This document shows positions 1,512-9,708 of a stretch of 25,534 nt of DNA, piece after piece. Under the pieces are notes generated by a model. That model saw only the letters and a list, made by a program, of their open reading frames with translations. It ran no database searches and was not told the origin of the DNA. The DNA lies in IMG/VR virus record IMGVR_UViG_3300011339_000787, positions 1-25,534 of that record. One strand, given 5' to 3'. The DNA is from a virus. Taxonomy: Duplodnaviria; Caudoviricetes. How positions within the stretch are numbered: the stretch's first letter is position 1; every line of letters begins with the position of its first letter. Position numbers and translations under genes: made by a program.

Positions 1512-1772
1512 CTAGGGCTGTTTCTGCCCCGCCATGAGGTGGTCTAGCTTTTCTTCAAGGTCAACCATACGGGCTGGCCATATGATTTCGCACCCGATGC
1601 AGTTTTCATGCGACCGGGAGAGGTCGAGTCGAAGTGCGTCATTAATGGCAATCTGCCGTTCCAACTTGCGGGCTAAGTCCTGGGCGGCTACGTACACGTC
1701 GGCTTTGGTCACGTTGGCTAGGTCTAGGGTCATGGTCTGTAGTCGGTTGGTTTTAATGCGAACTTTAGACAA
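1512..1772 (-). CDS. Hypothetical protein (86 aa)
   Basis: Operon tiling; 8-nt overlap with the initiator gene. Confidence 0.65.
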   Translation of the reverse strand: MSKVRIKTNRLQTMTLDLANVTKADVYVAAQDLARKLERQIAINDALRLDLSRSHENCIGCEIIWPARMVDLEEKLDHLMAGQKQP

Positions 1773-2367
1773 ATCCTAAAGCGGCCCTCATTCGGGCCAA
1801 TCGTTCCAAATCTTTGGGATCGGTAATCTCGCGCTCGTCGTTTTTTGAGCCGCTGCCGCCCCTCAAGGGCGAGCAAGCGGGCTCAGGTTTTTTATTCTCT
1901 ATATCTCCCGCTGCCGCTTGGGGCGGCGCGGAGATATTGTTCTCTGTTCTCTTCTTGCACACCTGTGAGGGTTTCACGTCGTGACCCTGTGAGGGTTTCA
2001 CCTGCTCACCCTGTGAGGGGTTGCCATGACCCTGTGAGGGGTGGCTGATTGAGAGCAAACAAAAGGCGTTTCGGGTTGCCCTAAGTGCTCCGTTGGCGCC
2101 GGAAAAAATGCGAATCAACCCGGCCTCTTGGAGGTCAGGAAGGCATCTAGAAACGGTGTTTTTTGACGCTCCTATGTGCTCGGCCAGCTGCTCATAGGAG
2201 GCTGCAAAACGGCGTTTCTGGTCGGTGCCAGCGGCACTCTGAAAATGCGTCAAGGCGTGATAAACGGCGTAATGGTTTGGGCCAAATTGGCCTGCAATCT
2301 TGGCAGCTTCGCGGGTCTGCCAGGCGAACGGTCCTTCCTGTTTTGGGTTCTCTGATCTGGGTTTCAT
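1765..2367 (-). CDS. Replication initiator-like protein with winged HTH (lambda O-like organisation)
   Basis: ASYEQLAEHIGASKNTVSRCLPDLQEAGLIRI is an HTH_36-type helix-turn-helix; internal PSQG repeats are encoded by DNA iterons; adjacent to the helicase. Confidence 0.75.
   Translation of the reverse strand: MKPRSENPKQEGPFAWQTREAAKIAGQFGPNHYAVYHALTHFQSAAGTDQKRRFAASYEQLAEHIGASKNTVSRCLPDLQEAGLIRIFSGANGALRATRNAFCLLSISHPSQGHGNPSQGEQVKPSQGHDVKPSQVCKKRTENNISAPPQAAAGDIENKKPEPACSPLRGGSGSKNDEREITDPKDLERLARMRAALGFV
1962..2040. repeat. Four iterons CCTGTGAGGG, probable replication origin
   Basis: Copies start at 1962, 1986, 2010 and 2031 (spacing 24, 24, 21) inside the initiator gene, as in lambdoid origins. 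Confidence 0.75.
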
Positions 2368-3710
2368 TTGCGTTTCTTAGGTTCGGGATCTTCCAGCACC
2401 GGCTTGGTACATGGCTTCCAGATCATGCCGTCCCGCTCGGGGTCTGGGCTGTGACGAATGTGGATCCGTGCGGAAAATTTACCCGTGTCCATGCTCATCA
2501 TGCCCGCCCGCAGTCGCCGCTTGGTCATCGTCAGCGAGCACGTCGGCGGGTCTCCCTCGGGAGTCTCCACCCGCTGCAATGTCACCACCTCTCTCGCCCA
2601 ATTCGTCAGCGCGCTGGATCCAAACCCAGCGTAGGCCAGATCGGAGTCGGTGCGGGCAGTGCCCTCCCTCGGCTTTGGCAAGTGGTGAATCAGTGCCATG
2701 ATGACGCCGGTCTTGCCGCTGGTCCGGTTGAGTGCATTGCAAAACTGAGTCACCACTGCCTGGTCGGAAATGTCGTCTCCGAGGTAGCACATAAGCGGGT
2801 CAATCCAAACGATGTCGGGCTGATGCCGGATCACTAGGGCCTCCAAAACCCGCAGGAACTCGGCCCCGGCGTGCGTGTTGTCGCGGTAGAACACCAGCTT
2901 TTCGTTAAGTTCCGCCCGCACCCGCTCGGTGCATTGCCCCTTTCCATACTTGCAGATGACGGATTGCAAGATTTCGGACTGGTCGCCTAGGTCATTTTCG
3001 GCCTGCAGAATGAGGCTTTTTAAAGGTCGCACTGGCAGGATCCCAAAGGTGAGCAGTTCGCCAAAAGTGGAAAGTTCCGCAGTGTCCCTCGGTATTGCCC
3101 AGCCTATCGCAAGCTGCATGGTCAGGCTGCTTTTGCCGATGCCCGATTGAGCATTGATGAGCACCGAGCCGCCTTTGCACAGCCAACGGTCGCCAAGGAT
3201 CGTGTTGGGGTCATGTTTCGTGTCATATTCGAGCAATTCCGCAAAACTAGTCTGCCGAACTTCTCCCAGCCCCTGCTCGGCAGCGGCTACGGTCACCGCA
3301 TCGCCCAGGCTCGCCACTACGTCGCCGGTTGGCTCCCCGGTTGAAAGTGCCTGGGTCGCCTGAGTTAGTTTTGCCAACAGCACACGGCGCCGGGATGCGT
3401 CAAGCACCAGCCCGCACCAATCTGGCAACGGGTGCAGGCTTGGCATCATTGCTGTCAGGTCGGAGATTGTGCCGAATGGCACGCCCTGGTTTGCGAGCCG
3501 ATGGAAAACAGCAATCGGGTCCATGCTTGCCCCCTCATCGGCTGCGGCGCGGATCCCGGCAAAGATGACGCCGTGCGTTGCGTCAAAAAAGTCGCCAGTT
3601 CGGAGCCCTTGGCTGGTCACCACCTGCAATGCAGCGTCGGGAGCAAACAGTAGACACCCCAGCACCGCCCGCTCGGCCTGTATGGCCTGCGGGATGTTTG
3701 GTTCGCTCAT
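2364..3710 (-). CDS. Replicative helicase: DnaB N-terminal domain fused to a RepA/AAA_25-type SF4 ATPase
   Basis: N-terminal PQAIQAERAVLGCLL...DFFDATHGVIF is DnaB-N-like; Walker A AQSGIGKS, AEND, Walker B IVWIDP, IHH, and GSSAL motifs. Confidence 0.85.
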   Translation of the reverse strand: MSEPNIPQAIQAERAVLGCLLFAPDAALQVVTSQGLRTGDFFDATHGVIFAGIRAAADEGASMDPIAVFHRLANQGVPFGTISDLTAMMPSLHPLPDWCGLVLDASRRRVLLAKLTQATQALSTGEPTGDVVASLGDAVTVAAAEQGLGEVRQTSFAELLEYDTKHDPNTILGDRWLCKGGSVLINAQSGIGKSSLTMQLAIGWAIPRDTAELSTFGELLTFGILPVRPLKSLILQAENDLGDQSEILQSVICKYGKGQCTERVRAELNEKLVFYRDNTHAGAEFLRVLEALVIRHQPDIVWIDPLMCYLGDDISDQAVVTQFCNALNRTSGKTGVIMALIHHLPKPREGTARTDSDLAYAGFGSSALTNWAREVVTLQRVETPEGDPPTCSLTMTKRRLRAGMMSMDTGKFSARIHIRHSPDPERDGMIWKPCTKPVLEDPEPKKRK

Positions 3711-3712
3711 AT

Positions 3713-3928
3713 CTAGAGCGCGGCCTCGAAGTCTCGTTGCTTCCGGCCAAACGGGGTCAGTGTTTCGGCTTCTAGAGTCCCTTCAAACATCTGCACGGCT
3801 TTTGCCAGTGTCCACGTCTCAATGCTGTCCCCGTCAATCCCCGCCTGTCCGCACCCCACCAGCGCCCTGTGCGCCTGTTCTAGCTGTCCCGCAATTCTCT
3901 CTGCTTCTGTGTTCTCTGATTTTGTCAT
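3713..3928 (-). CDS. Hypothetical protein (71 aa)
   Basis: Operon tiling; AGGGGG upstream of the ATG. Confidence 0.6.
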   Translation of the reverse strand: MTKSENTEAERIAGQLEQAHRALVGCGQAGIDGDSIETWTLAKAVQMFEGTLEAETLTPFGRKQRDFEAAL

Positions 3929-3983
3929 TTGTCCCCCTAAAGATTATGCGCGTGATCGGATGCGCGCCCCCCGGACTGTCAGT

Positions 3984-4391
3984 TTAGAACGGGATCTCGT
4001 CAGACGCGAGGTCGTCAGACGCACCTGCGCTCAATGGGAGCCAGTTTTTAATCTCTAGATAGCCGCGCTCAGTTTTTGGGTTAATTTTCTCACCCTCAAC
4101 AAGCTCCACCTTGGCAATCTTGCCGATGCAATCTTCAGGCTCGATATTCAGCGTCTTGCCCTCCACAACTTTCTTTCCGATGGCTGTGGCAAACTCGGCC
4201 ACGTTACGCGAGTTTTTTGCGGTGAAGACGACCCAGCTTTTGAAGGTCAGCGGCCCCACTTTAACCTCAAGCTGAAGCATCTCGTTGCCTGCCTTAGAAA
4301 CGGCGTCAATGGCGTGCTCAATGCGGGCCAGATGGATGCCTGGTCCGATGTTCTGGGTGGATTCGGTGGATTCAATTTTTAGTGATGGCAT
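3984..4391 (-). CDS. Single-stranded DNA-binding protein (DUF669-like)
   Basis: PGIHLARI...SKAGNEMLQL pattern; acidic tail ending DDLASDEIPF; near the annealase gene. Confidence 0.75.
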   Translation of the reverse strand: MPSLKIESTESTQNIGPGIHLARIEHAIDAVSKAGNEMLQLEVKVGPLTFKSWVVFTAKNSRNVAEFATAIGKKVVEGKTLNIEPEDCIGKIAKVELVEGEKINPKTERGYLEIKNWLPLSAGASDDLASDEIPF

Positions 4392-4397
4392 GGTGTT

Positions 4398-4586
4398 TTA
4401 ATTTTGAGATTCGCTGATTCTTTTTTTGACTAACTCGAGTGCGGCAACAAGTAGTTGGCCGTCAGTGATCCAGTTTGGCTTGCTGGAAATAAAATGTAGT
4501 TGAGTGCTGTCTTGTGCCAAAATCAAAAAATGATCTGACCCATCTAGCAAATCGTTCAACTCGTCGTTTGTGTATTGAATTTTCAT
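4398..4586 (-). CDS. Hypothetical protein (62 aa), AT-rich
   Basis: ATGA overlap with the recombinase stop; fills the gap before SSB. Confidence 0.6.
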   Translation of the reverse strand: MKIQYTNDELNDLLDGSDHFLILAQDSTQLHFISSKPNWITDGQLLVAALELVKKRISESQN

Positions 4587-5320
4587 ATTCCAAAAGCTGC
4601 AAAGAATCGCTCAGGAAATGCGACGGCTTGAGTGGCAATGGTGTCGGCTGGAATGTCCAAATAAGTTTGGTCTGCAGTGATCCAGCCCCGTTTCCGTGCG
4701 CCTGCGGTGACTTTTTCACGCTGGGCGTCGGTCTTGTCTGCCAACAGCCGCTGCATCGGGTTGATGCGTTGGATCGGATCCGGCAGCGGTTGCGATGTCG
4801 CCTCGATTTGCAAAGGCTCAGGATCGCTCTGAGTTGTCACCGGCCCAAACTCTGCCACTTCCTCCGGTGCGTAAAGCCCGGACAGAACGCCAGGATAGAT
4901 CCCGCGCACTGCCTCGGAAATGCACCGTGCTTTGAGCATCTGTCTCGGAAACTTTTTCCAAGTTAAATTTCCAGTGAGCCCGGCGCGTTCGGCGTCTTTG
5001 ATCGTCCAGCTAACCTTTAGCGTCCCTCCTTGCGGATGGCTAAATGTGCCAGAGACTGACTCATGCGTGTAATCGTGCCACTCAACGCGGCCCCCAGCTT
5101 GCTGGAAACGTGCCAGCATTGCCTCGGATTTAAGAGACGGCTTACCGTTGATGATGTGGTAATCACGGGCGGCCTCCGCAGGATGTCGTCCCTCGGCTTG
5201 GCAGAGAAGTCCTAGTGCGAGCGCCTGTGCAGGTGTTTGGATCCCGAACAGTTTGGACTCGGCAATGGCCTGCGCCATTAGTTTTGTTTGGTCGAATGGT
5301 ATCAGTTGCATGTTGTTCAT
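4583..5320 (-). CDS. RecT/Red-beta-like single-strand annealing protein (245 aa)
   Basis: HIINGKPSL and WKKFPRQMLKARCISEAVR...GLYAPEE motifs typical of the RecT/Bet family; start reassigned to ATG 5320. Confidence 0.8.
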   Translation of the reverse strand: MNNMQLIPFDQTKLMAQAIAESKLFGIQTPAQALALGLLCQAEGRHPAEAARDYHIINGKPSLKSEAMLARFQQAGGRVEWHDYTHESVSGTFSHPQGGTLKVSWTIKDAERAGLTGNLTWKKFPRQMLKARCISEAVRGIYPGVLSGLYAPEEVAEFGPVTTQSDPEPLQIEATSQPLPDPIQRINPMQRLLADKTDAQREKVTAGARKRGWITADQTYLDIPADTIATQAVAFPERFFAAFGI

Positions 5321-5331
5321 TTTTTTTGTTG

Positions 5332-5625
5332 TTAGGGAAGATCTACAATCCACTTTCCGTTTTGTTTGGCAATCCAGAGCTTCTGCATGCCATAGCATCC
5401 TTCATGTCGCTCCCATGCCATTGATTTTAGGCAGTTTGCAAGAGCATCAAAAAGCTCAGTATCTGGAACAATCCAGACTCTAGTTTCTCCTGCATACTCA
5501 AAGCTGGCATATAAATTCTCATTCAAATCATCCGTGCCGTCACAAGGATGGATGCCAACGCCTGTGATGTAGCCGTAGAACCGTTCTGTTTCTCCAATAG
5601 TTTCTATTTTTGTGTGTGTTTTCAT
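5332..5625 (-). CDS. Hypothetical protein (97 aa)
   Basis: ATGA overlap with the resolvase stop; lower GC than neighbours. Confidence 0.65.
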   Translation of the reverse strand: MKTHTKIETIGETERFYGYITGVGIHPCDGTDDLNENLYASFEYAGETRVWIVPDTELFDALANCLKSMAWERHEGCYGMQKLWIAKQNGKWIVDLP

Positions 5626-6098
5626 TTGGTTGTCGTGAGCTTTTTTCCTGCTTCAAGTATGAGCAGTGCGTCGGCGGTCTTGAGCGTCACTGTGAGTTGC
5701 GGATACAGCGCCTGAGCGCGTCCCTTAAGATGCGCCTTCCATCGGTTGCCGTGCGTCTTCTTGTCGCCTAGTCCAAGAGCTTGCTGCCACTTTTTGGGCG
5801 GCAGATACTCAATGCGCGCACCGTAGGCTGCCAGCAGTCCCTCGATCCTGCCGTAGTTCCGAAACATAGTCGCCATGCTGGAACCGCTCATTTTGCCCGC
5901 AAACTTGGGCAACTCTTCAAGGAACACCGTCGGCGTGTCTGCGCTGGTTGTATTGTGCTGCGTGCACAAAATCATCATCTGCGTGTCCATGTCGTGCAAT
6001 GTGCCCGGCATTGGCAGTGCGTGCGTGCTGCCATCGGTATCGATGTAGGCAATCCCGCCGCCTACACCTGGGTCAATGGCGATGTAGTTTTGGGTCAT
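5622..6098 (-). CDS. RuvC-like Holliday junction resolvase (158 aa)
   Basis: IAIDPG at the N-terminus, VFLEE, PKKWQ and ADALLI match the RNase H-fold RuvC pattern; start at ATG 6098 (ATGA overlap). Confidence 0.8.
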   Translation of the reverse strand: MTQNYIAIDPGVGGGIAYIDTDGSTHALPMPGTLHDMDTQMMILCTQHNTTSADTPTVFLEELPKFAGKMSGSSMATMFRNYGRIEGLLAAYGARIEYLPPKKWQQALGLGDKKTHGNRWKAHLKGRAQALYPQLTVTLKTADALLILEAGKKLTTTK

Positions 6099-6454
6099 CC
6101 CCACACCTCCCAGTCGGTCGCAAGTATATCCTTTACAGTCAACGCGACTGGGCCATCTCCAAAAATCATGCCTTGCAGTTTGGGCCATTGTGGCCGCCTG
6201 ACGTAGTAATACGGTGAGTCAGAAAGTCTCAACGCATTTTGCAAGGTGCAGCCAACAAACCTTTTTTTAGGGTCAGGAGCATGAGGCTTTGGTGGTTCAC
6301 CTTCCCACATTCTCTCTACCAAATGCGCAACAGGTACGCCTTTGAGTCCTGCAAGATTGTTCAGGTAGTTTATATCTTTGGTCGAATCTTTGACCCGCAC
6401 CCTCCAGCCAGCGGCCAGCTTGTCCAGCAGTTCGTTTCTTGGTATGTCTTGCAT
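6095..6454 (-). CDS. Protein with a DUF2829/Tad2-like C-terminal motif (119 aa)
   Basis: ALR...VRRPQW...LTVKDILATDWEV resembles the DUF2829 signature (V.R..W...D.LA.DW); start at ATG 6454. Confidence 0.55.
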   Translation of the reverse strand: MQDIPRNELLDKLAAGWRVRVKDSTKDINYLNNLAGLKGVPVAHLVERMWEGEPPKPHAPDPKKRFVGCTLQNALRLSDSPYYYVRRPQWPKLQGMIFGDGPVALTVKDILATDWEVWG

Positions 6455-6455
6455 A

Positions 6456-7448
6456 TTATCTTGCTTGCACCAGCGGTTGCTGCCCCGCTTTTTTGTGCAC
6501 AACCCATTCCGGCAGTTCGTGCCCTGCCGTGCTCCAAAGCGTTTCCGCTTTTTTCCGGCTGAGTGCCCCGAGTGCAGCAATCGCGTTGCCTGCGCCAATG
6601 ATTCCCTCCTCGACTGCTCTAGCGAGGTGCTCGGGCTCGACGTACTCGGTCACCCTCGCCTTCTGCAATCTCCACCCATGCACCGGCTGCCCAGCTTCGA
6701 GCAGTTCGCGGGCCTTGACCTTGGCGGCATCACGGAAGTCTTCTAGCGTGCTGCACGCCGTTAGAAACTTGCCAACCTGCACCGGGTCATTGAGCAGCGC
6801 CAGAAACCCCTCGTCCTGCACCGTCGGGGCGAGCCCTGCCACTGTCACTAGTGCGCTGTCTTTGGCCTGTACCCGAGCGGGACAGGTCAGGCTTTTGGCA
6901 CACCAGCCGCAGTAATCGTTTTCACGCGGCCCGCTGCCCACATTGGCGAGGATGCCGCGCACTAGGTCGGACGCGGACTTGTATGTCCAGTGATGTGTGA
7001 CGACCTGCCGTTGGTCGCAGAATAGCAGGTGCGTGGTCCAAGACTGTTCAAAACGCATCTGCATGAGCCCGAGTGCATAGGCTGCCATCTGCGCTCGGTA
7101 ATCGTAGATCTGCCCGCTCTTGAGGTCCATACTCCAGTTAGCACGGGCTGCCACGCCGTCCACCGTGCCAGTGTGCTCTAGCCCCGCTGTCTGCACTCGG
7201 CACCCCTCATCCAATGTCACAAGTCCGTCACGGACGCCTCCCATCTGTGCGCATTGGTTGATGGTCCACCGCACTGCGTCGGCGTCCTCCTCAGGTAAAT
7301 CCCAGTCAGGGAATTCGCCGGTCGTCCACGCATGACGAAAAGCCTGGTCCAGTTTGGTCCCGCGTGCGGCTGCCGGACTGGTGCCTGGCGCCCCTTCGTA
7401 CTGCCCGCACAAGGCGAGCTTGGGGAGTGATGAATGTCTAATTTTCAT
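6456..7448 (-). CDS. PD-(D/E)XK exonuclease, Cas4-like/DUF2800 type (330 aa)
   Basis: GTVD, DLKSG and QMAAYALG motifs; one N-terminal Cys plus CGWCAKSLTC suggests an Fe-S staple; start at ATG 7448 (MKIRHSSL). Confidence 0.85.
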   Translation of the reverse strand: MKIRHSSLPKLALCGQYEGAPGTSPAAARGTKLDQAFRHAWTTGEFPDWDLPEEDADAVRWTINQCAQMGGVRDGLVTLDEGCRVQTAGLEHTGTVDGVAARANWSMDLKSGQIYDYRAQMAAYALGLMQMRFEQSWTTHLLFCDQRQVVTHHWTYKSASDLVRGILANVGSGPRENDYCGWCAKSLTCPARVQAKDSALVTVAGLAPTVQDEGFLALLNDPVQVGKFLTACSTLEDFRDAAKVKARELLEAGQPVHGWRLQKARVTEYVEPEHLARAVEEGIIGAGNAIAALGALSRKKAETLWSTAGHELPEWVVHKKAGQQPLVQAR

Positions 7449-7449
7449 G

Positions 7450-7677
7450 CTACTTAGCCTCCTTGATTGCGGCGGTGAACAGCGCGCGAATTGATTCAAC
7501 CGAGTAAAGCCTGCGTCCGCGTGTTCTGCCTGGCTCGCAAATCGCCACAGTTTGCACCTGTCCCGCTTTTCCCAGCTTCCAAAGATGGGTACGTGTGAGC
7601 CCGAACATTAATTCGGCCTGCTCATACCCCACCCATTCGGCAAAGGGCGGCTGTTCTGTTTTTTGTGTTGTGTTCAT
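7450..7677 (-). CDS. Small excisionase-like winged-helix DNA-binding protein
   Basis: WVGYEQAELMFGLTRTHLWKL...GRRLYSVESI fits the Xis/AlpA-like pattern. Confidence 0.65.
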   Translation of the reverse strand: MNTTQKTEQPPFAEWVGYEQAELMFGLTRTHLWKLGKAGQVQTVAICEPGRTRGRRLYSVESIRALFTAAIKEAK

Positions 7678-8457: not shown

Positions 8458-8682
8458 TTAGGCGAGCTGAAGGCTGTAGCTGCGCCCGCCGTCCCAATGG
8501 CCCTCGGTTGCCACCGCCAGATCTGCCACTGCCTGGGGCAGGTCGCTGAGGTCGTGACCCCTCCACAGGTCAACGTGCAGCGTCGGAGTGGAGTCCTCCG
8601 CAGAGTATTCGCAGACCGCCACATGGGCGGCTAGTTCTGCGGGAATGAGTGCGGCAATATCAGTCAGGAATGCAGTGTTCAT
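8458..8682 (-). CDS. Hypothetical early protein (74 aa), first gene after the ribozyme
   Basis: A-rich leader, operon tiling. Confidence 0.65.
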   Translation of the reverse strand: MNTAFLTDIAALIPAELAAHVAVCEYSAEDSTPTLHVDLWRGHDLSDLPQAVADLAVATEGHWDGGRSYSLQLA

Positions 8683-8711
8683 TTTGTTCTTGGTTCATTG
8701 TTCACTCTGAC

Positions 8712-8763
8712 GGCCTCGTCAGCACCCGCCTTACGGGTGGACGCCCCCTCGGGCGTTTCGGCC
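8712..8763 (-). ncRNA. Type II hammerhead ribozyme
   Basis: Minus strand GGCC-GAAA-CGCCC(GAGG)GGGCG-UC^CACCCG(UAAGG)CGGGUG-CUGACGA-GGCC: all core nucleotides (CUGANGA, GAAA, GUC) and three stems present; intergenic and sense to flanking genes. Confidence 0.92.
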
Positions 8764-8767
8764 TTAA

Positions 8768-8989
8768 TTAAGAGTTTAGACGGGCATTCACAATGTGCTT
8801 TGCCATCTTCAGGCTAGCCTCACTGTCACTCATATTCTCCTCTCCGGGAGCATAAATATTCCACTCAACCTGTCCCTCCGCGTCGTTCAAAGACGCGTAG
8901 TCAAATCTGCGGATCGTGTAGCCCCTGTAAAGGTATTCTCCGGCTGTTATTTTCGTGGCTGTGTGCTGTTGCTTCTTGGTTGCTTTCAT
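8768..8989 (-). CDS. Hypothetical early protein (73 aa), predicted leaderless
   Basis: ATG 7 nt downstream of a TAAGAT -10 box; KITAGEYLYRGYTI is a small beta-rich phage-type sequence. Confidence 0.7.
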   Translation of the reverse strand: MKATKKQQHTATKITAGEYLYRGYTIRRFDYASLNDAEGQVEWNIYAPGEENMSDSEASLKMAKHIVNARLNS

Positions 8990-9052: not shown

Positions 9053-9077
9053 AAAGGAAGCCCCCCTTGCGGGGGGC
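9053..9077 (-). terminator. Intrinsic terminator after the 60-aa gene
   Basis: GCCCCCC-GCAA-GGGGGGC hairpin followed by UUCCUUU. Confidence 0.65.
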
Positions 9078-9273: not shown

Positions 9274-9323
9274 ATCTTATCCCCTGCCGTACGGTTGGCT
9301 AGCTTTTATTTAATTTATTTTTA
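9274..9323 (-). promoter_or_regulatory. Early promoter P2: AT-rich UP element, TAGCCA-N16-TAAGAT
   Basis: -10 at 9274-9279, -35-like at 9296-9301; exact 20-mer at 9288-9307 identical to P1. Confidence 0.7.
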
Positions 9324-9680: not shown

Positions 9681-9708
9681 ACCTTACCCAACCGCCCACC
9701 GCTGTCTA
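9681..9708 (-). promoter_or_regulatory. Promoter P3: TAGACA-N16-TAAGGT, leaderless for the DUF3310 gene
   Basis: Same box spacing as P1/P2 and the same GGGCGC-ATG junction as P2; lacks the AT-rich UP element. Confidence 0.55.

Follow-up and report, generated by a model that had tools for sequence, protein, structure and literature searches.

A type II hammerhead ribozyme motif with a covarying core-complementary tail in a partial tailed-phage genome

The window analysed here, a stretch of 25,534 nucleotides of viral DNA, carries on its minus strand a type II hammerhead ribozyme motif whose 3′ flank is complementary to the motif's own catalytic core. Since this tail covaries with core position 7 among the copies found elsewhere, the hairpin that it would form with the core, in competition with the ribozyme fold, appears to be an RNA hairpin under selection. 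The ribozyme, its location between phage genes, the idea that it processes mRNA and its tertiary contact are all already known; the covarying core-masking tail, which we have not found described in the literature, is the seat of interest.

That the window element is a type II hammerhead motif is confirmed. It was proposed in a preliminary description, whose minus-strand letters at 8763-8712 agree with those read directly, and the proposal is borne out by an Rfam cmscan of the whole window, in which model RF02276 (Hammerhead_II) matches 8763-8705 (minus strand) over the whole model with 40.0 bits, above its gathering cut-off of 37, and an E-value of 4.7e-05. This is the sole gathering-level Rfam match in the whole window, and no second ribozyme was found there by Rfam at E-values up to 5. 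The parts of the element, by mapped coordinates unless said otherwise, are the following.

8712..8764, minus strand: type II hammerhead ribozyme motif (Rfam RF02276, mapped coordinates, fold)
8764, minus strand: A immediately 5′ of stem II, probably joined to loop-I U8733 in a reverse Hoogsteen U-A pair (invariance in same-shape copies)
8763-8760/8715-8712, minus strand: stem II, open, 4 bp
8759-8756, minus strand: GAAA
8742-8740, minus strand: GUC triplet, with U16.1 at 8741 (end of stem III) and C17 at 8740
8739-8734/8728-8723, minus strand: stem I, 6 bp
8733-8729, minus strand: loop I, five bases, the first being the invariant U (position 1.7)
8722-8716, minus strand: catalytic core
8707..8711, minus strand: core-complementary tail GUCAG (minimum-energy fold, covariation with core position 7)

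The window has the core CUGANGA (8722-8716), the GAAA (8759-8756), a UH cleavage site in the GUC (8742-8740) and the pair G10.1-C11.1 (G8715-C8760), and its topology is that of type II, with stems I and III closed by loops and stem II open. The predicted cut after the GUC falls between C8740 and C8739, exactly where it had been placed before, and the earlier statement that the ribozyme starts 5 nt after a stop codon agrees with the sequence as well (stop 8770-8768, four bases between, stem II from the fifth base on). The limits first given, 8763-8712, contain the motif itself but are slightly too short, as A8764 and the tail (8711-8707) are part of the element too. Folded alone, 8764-8712 takes up the three-stem structure at minimum energy (-27.2 kcal/mol, z -1.96), yet 7/200 shuffles are equally good, so that folding energy by itself is weak support; the motif's real support comes from the Rfam score and from the covariation of stems I and II in the 131 same-shape copies described below. 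The motif very probably self-cleaves. A 41-base piece over the ribozyme, with 4 differences, comes from one probably-DNA run (two small-share runs, contigs only, no joints or read ends).

The window's ribozyme belongs, as an ordinary case, to a phage element that is common, given the at least 253 copies of our survey and the hammerheads between prophage genes described in parts of Perreault et al. 2011 (PMC3088659). The survey consisted of two pattern scans of IMG/VR, over 8/64 and 22/64 of the database parts (about 1000 and about 360 stretches estimated), from which a structural finder gave at least 253 distinct motifs from 251 loci plus the window. Because the scan patterns required stem III or stem II of the window's type, the sample is biased; they left core position 7, loop I, the tail and the base 5′ of stem II free. 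The window's shape, a 17-base stem-loop I with a 4-bp stem II, is that of 131/253 among the matches listed, and these 131 same-shape copies, all tail-bearing ones included, combine a perfect core with compensatory variation in stems I and II, the compensation in stem I having to be read with the class itself being defined by 6 paired positions there. Pair 10.1-11.1 is G-C in 131/131 among the matches listed, a count largely set by the search patterns. In other phages, at loci L132-L134, L166-L167, L186, L198 and L019-L022, three or more such hammerheads lie within a few kilobases, each between small genes.

Among the same-shape copies of the matches listed, the first base of loop I is U in 131/131, the base directly 5′ of stem II is A in 131/131, and a purine stands directly 3′ of stem II in 115/131 (G8711 in the window). 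With stem II length left free, U and A are each found in 132/133 among the matches listed, and the one exception, the single case of locus L106, appears to have A and U swapped. A tertiary contact between U8733 and A8764 is likely in the window, and A8764 should count as part of the ribozyme. Such a contact is not new, since a reverse Hoogsteen pair joining loop 1's U with the 3′-A of loop 2 is known in viroid hammerheads, as parts of Dufour et al. (PMC2632901) describe, and Figure S5 of Perreault 2011 (PMC3088659) gives the motif U-Nm-Y-N / R-Nm-A for all three hammerhead types. At the penultimate position of loop 1, where a pyrimidine is found in 84/131 same-shape copies among the matches listed, the window has G; three of the four motif bases correspond to the 'imperfect' class of that figure. 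A pseudoknot between loop I and the 3′ tail was rejected for the window, its longest pairing being of 1 bp instead of at least 4 bp, a potential seen in 17/131 same-shape vs 86/122 other-shape copies among the matches listed. Pairing of loop I with the 5′ flank was not kept as a pseudoknot either, since the upstream sequence differs between the related loci that carry the ribozyme.

The tail at 8711-8707 is complementary to core 8722-8718 and, with C8712 added, would make a 6-bp hairpin with core 8722-8717; this hairpin and stem II are mutually exclusive. The sequence xUCAG within 14 bases of stem II is found in 56/253 motifs among the matches listed, against 31/1238 downstream control windows, and core position 7 and the tail base facing it are combined as 37 C/G, 14 U/A, 0 C/A, 0 U/G and 5 others (again among the matches listed). 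The naive p of 8e-13 for this covariation overstates the independence of the copies, which have 22 (C/G) and 13 (U/A) distinct stem I strands, three common to both. The link to position 7 is also kept at variable spacing (3 C/G and 7 U/A among the 15 off-position copies of the matches listed), and an independent GTDB set has xUCAG in 7/43 (4 C/G, 2 U/A, 1 other). Among the 82 same-shape copies without the tail in the matches listed, position 7 and the first tail base show no covariation (p 0.29). The tail GUCA as a fixed 'loop 2' contact was rejected because of this last result and of the variable spacing, 15/56 copies among the matches listed being off position 0. The preliminary description had seen the 3′ flank as a nuisance to be trimmed off before assaying cleavage, a view to be given up if, as the covariation indicates, the flank belongs to a selected core-complementary hairpin.

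We define here a tail-bearing (core-masking) subclass by RUCAG within 14 bases of stem II that matches core position 7, to which the window belongs with its GUCAG and C7. Among the matches listed, the core:tail hairpin is of 6 bp in 43/52, and RUCAG occurs in 47/131 same-shape vs 5/122 other-shape copies; in same-shape copies the tail seems to take the pseudoknot's place. The broader claim that all tails sequester the core is unsupported (82/130 among the matches listed vs 52% of shuffles), as the 84/131 same-shape copies without RUCAG among the matches listed have a general core:tail excess that is not significant (p 0.12). A second tail type, complementary to the 3′ strand of stem II, is weakly enriched (12/84 vs 22/495 among the matches listed). 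In loci L254, L256 and L277 (also L053, L184 and L196), a lengthened tail can pair, in a shifted register, with the core and the beginning of stem II, which may be a second solution to core masking.

How the two folds share the RNA can be approached with energy models. In short context, the active fold has -27.2, the active fold with a distal extension -30.2 and the core:tail fold -29.4 kcal/mol; the distal extension of stem II (8775-8771/8708-8704), although predicted in the window, was rejected, lying in coding sequence that differs among carriers. In the naked full 250-nt context, a nearest-neighbour model gives the core:tail fold a probability of 0.85-0.99, and stem II one below 0.07 even before the tail is transcribed. 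Stem II probability exceeds 0.5 in 8/46 tail-bearing vs 33/84 tail-less copies among the matches listed. As such models leave out tertiary contacts and ribosomes, they show a competition, not its winner, and they allow for an uncut RNA that would be mostly OFF. The predicted 3′ product folds into stem I and the core:tail hairpin, with the leader unpaired (z -3.77).

The window covers part of a tailed-phage genome and has its genes on the minus strand, where PHROGs gives the order major head protein, tape measure, endolysin-like protein and then the exonuclease onward through the O-like initiator. Around the ribozyme the layout is as follows.

9681..9708, minus strand: promoter-like motif P3, followed after 6 bases by the ATG of the DUF3310 gene (9674-9447)
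9274..9301, minus strand: promoter-like motif P2, followed after 6 bases by the ATG of the 60-aa ORF (9267-9085)
9060..9077, minus strand: GC hairpin with a poor U-run, possible terminator between the 60-aa gene and P1, kept in relative L290
8997..9024, minus strand: promoter-like motif P1 (-35-like 9024-9019, 16 bases, -10-like 9002-8997, 7 bases before ATG; AT-rich upstream)
8768..8989, minus strand: 73-aa ORF, first gene behind P1, likely leaderless, a variable slot (ORF list; homolog in 1/52 related loci)
8683..8706, minus strand: A/C-rich leader, 24 bases between the tail and the next AUG (sequence; unpaired in the 3′ product fold)
8458..8682, minus strand: 74-aa ORF, first gene of the predicted 3′ product (homolog in 4/52 related loci)
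1765..7499, minus strand: recombination/replication genes (exonuclease, Holliday junction resolvase, RecT-like, helicase, O-like initiator; PHROGs)

P1 and P2 are a 56-nt direct repeat (77%), and the consensus TAG[AC]CA-16-TAnnnT has three copies in the window (9708, 9301 and 9024), each 6-7 bases before an ATG. In the window and 52 RecT relatives, an ATG lies 5-7 bases after the -10 part in 29/36 distinct copies of the motif; in the control, a -10 part accompanies 3/598 of the -35 matches, and an ATG at 6 or 7 accompanies none. This conservation supports P1 as a leaderless promoter and with it the earlier placing of the 73-aa gene as the first behind P1; a sigma-70 scan did not call P1. Of the leaderless monocistron of roughly 250 nt that the ribozyme was said to cut off, the length holds if transcription starts at the A of AUG 8989, but the piece need not be monocistronic, with two more promoter copies upstream and a hairpin of poor U-run between; read-through from P2 or P3 past hairpin 9077-9060 would make the 5′ piece longer than 250 nt. 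PHROGs does support that recombination/replication genes follow downstream on the same strand, and we infer that the ribozyme is co-transcribed with those at 1765..7499. The 73-aa protein has no PHROGs or Pfam match, 2 other homologous proteins were found, and a search of viral contigs with it gave no match. The leader at 8683..8706 is free of Shine-Dalgarno-like motifs, and relatives have similar leaders; among the matches listed, such a motif is present in 10/31 tail-bearing vs 91/131 tail-less copies (p 1.8e-4), a comparison confounded by lineage. In many relatives the -35 hexamer is repeated inverted just before the -10 part, where it may be an operator, and inverted copies of the P1/P2 motif CCAACC(G) around P3 (9720-9712 and 9694-9685) are possible binding sites of a phage regulator. 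A 54-aa basic protein (9463-9299, minus strand), encoded just upstream of the early promoter, is conserved in 30/52 related loci and has no PHROGs or Pfam match.

Among the relatives, which are 52 loci found by RecT and include some near-duplicates, 23/52 carry the ribozyme upstream of RecT, one copy each: 18 were recovered by the strict structural finder, and 5 more, with a bulged stem I, by a relaxed pattern. All 23 carriers keep a core-complementary tail, this being GUCAG in 18, a G-U variant in 2 and a longer complement in shifted register in 3 (by inspection). The 30 loci that reach the 54-aa gene upstream of the promoter divide by hand count into 20 with and 10 without the ribozyme, and in L252, L279 and L300 genes of the same kinds follow the promoter region with no ribozyme between. 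The gene preceding the ribozyme varies widely between carriers. Judged by these sequences, the element is an optional cassette made of stop codon, ribozyme, tail, A/C-rich leader and an ATG about 28-32 bases past stem II. Neither tail nor ribozyme would be essential, seeing the many copies without RUCAG (84/131 among the matches listed) and the 10/30 relatives without the ribozyme. Relative L290 has the window's order of promoter, gene, GC hairpin, promoter, gene and hammerhead, each of the two slots being filled by another gene.

In L263, L268, L274, L290 and L294, one bulged A interrupts stem I near the cut site and the loop U stays in register. The four bulged copies scanned are all below the Rfam threshold, and Rfam gave no match in the 11 relative loci scanned. 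This threshold misses many such hammerheads (5/5 copies in the loci scanned), and an Rfam blank is no proof of absence, since the relaxed pattern recovered the bulged copies. Clustering, meaning two or more ribozymes close together, is not seen: there is one in the partial-genome window and one in each carrier locus.

As to function, the likeliest role, to which we would give about an even chance, is a one-time cut of the early mRNA, after which the tail, paired with the core, would complete a double hairpin and thereby keep the cut locked and the new end protected. Transcription from P1 would give a leaderless mRNA in which the core:tail hairpin is a competitor of the active fold, itself stabilised by the U8733-A8764 contact and stem II, and would somewhat delay cutting. 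The 5′ piece (250 nt from P1) would then end in stem III and a 2′,3′-cyclic phosphate, and the 3′ piece would begin with a 5′-OH on the first base of stem I, its first 33 bases being paired up in stem I and the core:tail hairpin. This double hairpin would displace the 5′ piece, block re-ligation and leave the next gene's A/C-rich start region open, thereby insulating the recombination/replication message from whichever gene occupies the first slot, as a natural RiboJ. In E. coli-type hosts, a 5′-OH and terminal hairpins slow mRNA decay; against a lock, a 4-bp stem II would let the product go unaided. What favours the lock is that catalysis seems to be still under selection alongside the tail, given the perfect core and covarying stems in all tail-bearing same-shape copies among the matches listed; that a hairpin of only 6 bp is fitting where it must not kill cleavage; that stop codons adjoin the ribozyme equally often with and without the tail; and that tail and pseudoknot would be alternative designs, both leaving the 3′ product self-folded, as the pseudoknot forms in the long strand alone according to parts of Perreault 2011 (PMC3088659).

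In the main alternative, the core:tail hairpin would above all keep the uncut RNA in an OFF state, with translation as the gate. With A8764 and the 5′ strand of stem II covered by a ribosome stopping at the upstream stop codon, the hairpin would close at once and be slow to open again; well-translated messages would stay whole, whereas untranslated or late ones would be cut. Such a brake, which we consider rather unlikely and which does not exclude the lock, draws on the position of the gene-ending stop codon, which relative to the tertiary A directly 5′ of stem II falls at -12..+1 in 130/162 copies with enough flank among the matches listed (control 70/1620), that A being inside the stop codon in 74/162 of them. 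The stop is, however, no more frequent with the tail (25/31) than without it (105/131, both among the matches listed), which gives the tail no special link with translation; the adjacency may be plain genome compaction, and the window's own A, at offset -6, is not part of the stop codon. In short context, about 2 kcal/mol or less separates the two folds, the tail-free interval during transcription is only about 4 bases, and downstream competitors can block ribozyme assembly in vivo, as reported in parts of PMC2817708. Masking the region to stop+6 or stop+9 gives the core:tail fold 0.997 in the model, a result built into that model. Unlikely, and more so than the brake at large, is a ligand-free switch read by the ribosome, with the stop codon supplying or abutting the tertiary A, the terminating ribosome flipping the RNA to the core-masked hairpin, and only messages with an untranslated first gene being cut; if true, phages would couple the processing of their replication operon to translation of a swappable first gene.

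A 5′-OH end is not always protective, cleavage of glmS leading to decay, and a differential stability of processed transcripts has been suggested (both in parts of PMC6765202). Hence the ribozyme might be a plain cutter whose cut condemns the mRNA of the first gene or of the downstream genes to decay, the ratio of early proteins being set in this way, with the tail only tuning the fraction cut. The optional presence among relatives fits such tuning, but both products are predicted to be hairpin-ended and the 3′ piece to have no unpaired 5′ end, and we hold it improbable. Most improbable of all is that the element makes no cut in vivo, being just a run of hairpins or a conserved boundary for RecT-type swapping of the first-slot gene. 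The unrelated genes flanked in relatives by conserved promoter and conserved ribozyme, the RecT and exonuclease encoded by the phage and the masked state favoured by folding models would suit it; however, a homology tract would have no need of what is seen, compensatory changes in the stems next to unchanging catalytic bases, U1.7 and 5′ A, and the G-U tail variants in 2/23 carriers point to RNA. Between lock after the cut and brake before it, the tail's two possible roles predict different results in simple assays, for which the window's copy is a clean handle, being single, directly behind a defined promoter-like motif and from a phage family with both carriers and non-carriers.

Hammerheads flanking genes in prophages, with cleavage demonstrated and mRNA processing proposed, are described in parts of Perreault et al. 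2011 (PMC3088659), and cleavage of type II hammerheads near phage genes has been seen both in vitro and in vivo (parts of PMC3088659 and PMC8782182). The window's ribozyme shares with Perreault's type II the topology, the core and an intergenic site among small variable phage genes, and the proposal of polycistronic RNA processing is likewise in that paper; in the parts concerned, theirs have a loop I:3′ tail pseudoknot and occur in clusters, whereas here the tail is complementary to the core and the copy is single, in 25.5 kb and in each of 23 carriers. The main text of that paper (PMC3088659) does not contain 'stop codon', nor a passage with 'alternative' or 'hairpin' on a core-masking tail, and four exact tail-bearing strings are absent from the text of its supplement, where alignment gaps could hide them. 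The same type and kind of context are found in Desulfovibrio vulgaris prophage regions, whose type II hammerheads cleave in cells by cyPhyRNA-seq and are given no function there (parts of PMC8782182). With the viroid and satellite hammerheads, as treated in parts of PMC2632901, the resemblance is in loop 1 starting with U, the purine after stem II and the A before its other strand; unlike theirs, loop 2 is open here and its A often comes from an upstream stop codon, and the window is without the penultimate pyrimidine. RiboJ, the sTRSV ribozyme plus a 23-nt hairpin, raises transcript about twofold according to parts of Clifton et al. (PMC6206723). It is alike in the cut followed by a hairpin-capped 5′ end before the start region and in a downstream message independent of the upstream one, but RiboJ (PMC6206723) is synthetic and has a separate added hairpin, whereas here the second hairpin would use the core itself and compete with catalysis. 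In literature covered by titles and abstract openings, figures and most subscription papers being beyond reach, no natural core-masking tail was found. The role of bacterial ribozymes is called largely elusive in parts of a 2019 review (PMC6765202) and likewise of PMC6155905.

The sole match of the head protein in the phage collection is Verrucomicrobia phage P8625 (57%), RecT and tape measure have weak matches to the same phage, and a similar cassette is present in a Spartobacteria bin (locus L309), which makes a host among the Verrucomicrobiota likely. Phage P8625 itself gave no Rfam match, at a cut-off that misses many such hammerheads. A weak Rfam match to abiF RNA at 566-524 on the minus strand of the window (29.2 bits vs a cut-off of 37, E 0.15) is probably due to chance. 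In most of the window's genes, the start codon is often preceded by an A/C-rich stretch with no Shine-Dalgarno-like motif, which suggests a host that initiates translation without Shine-Dalgarno.
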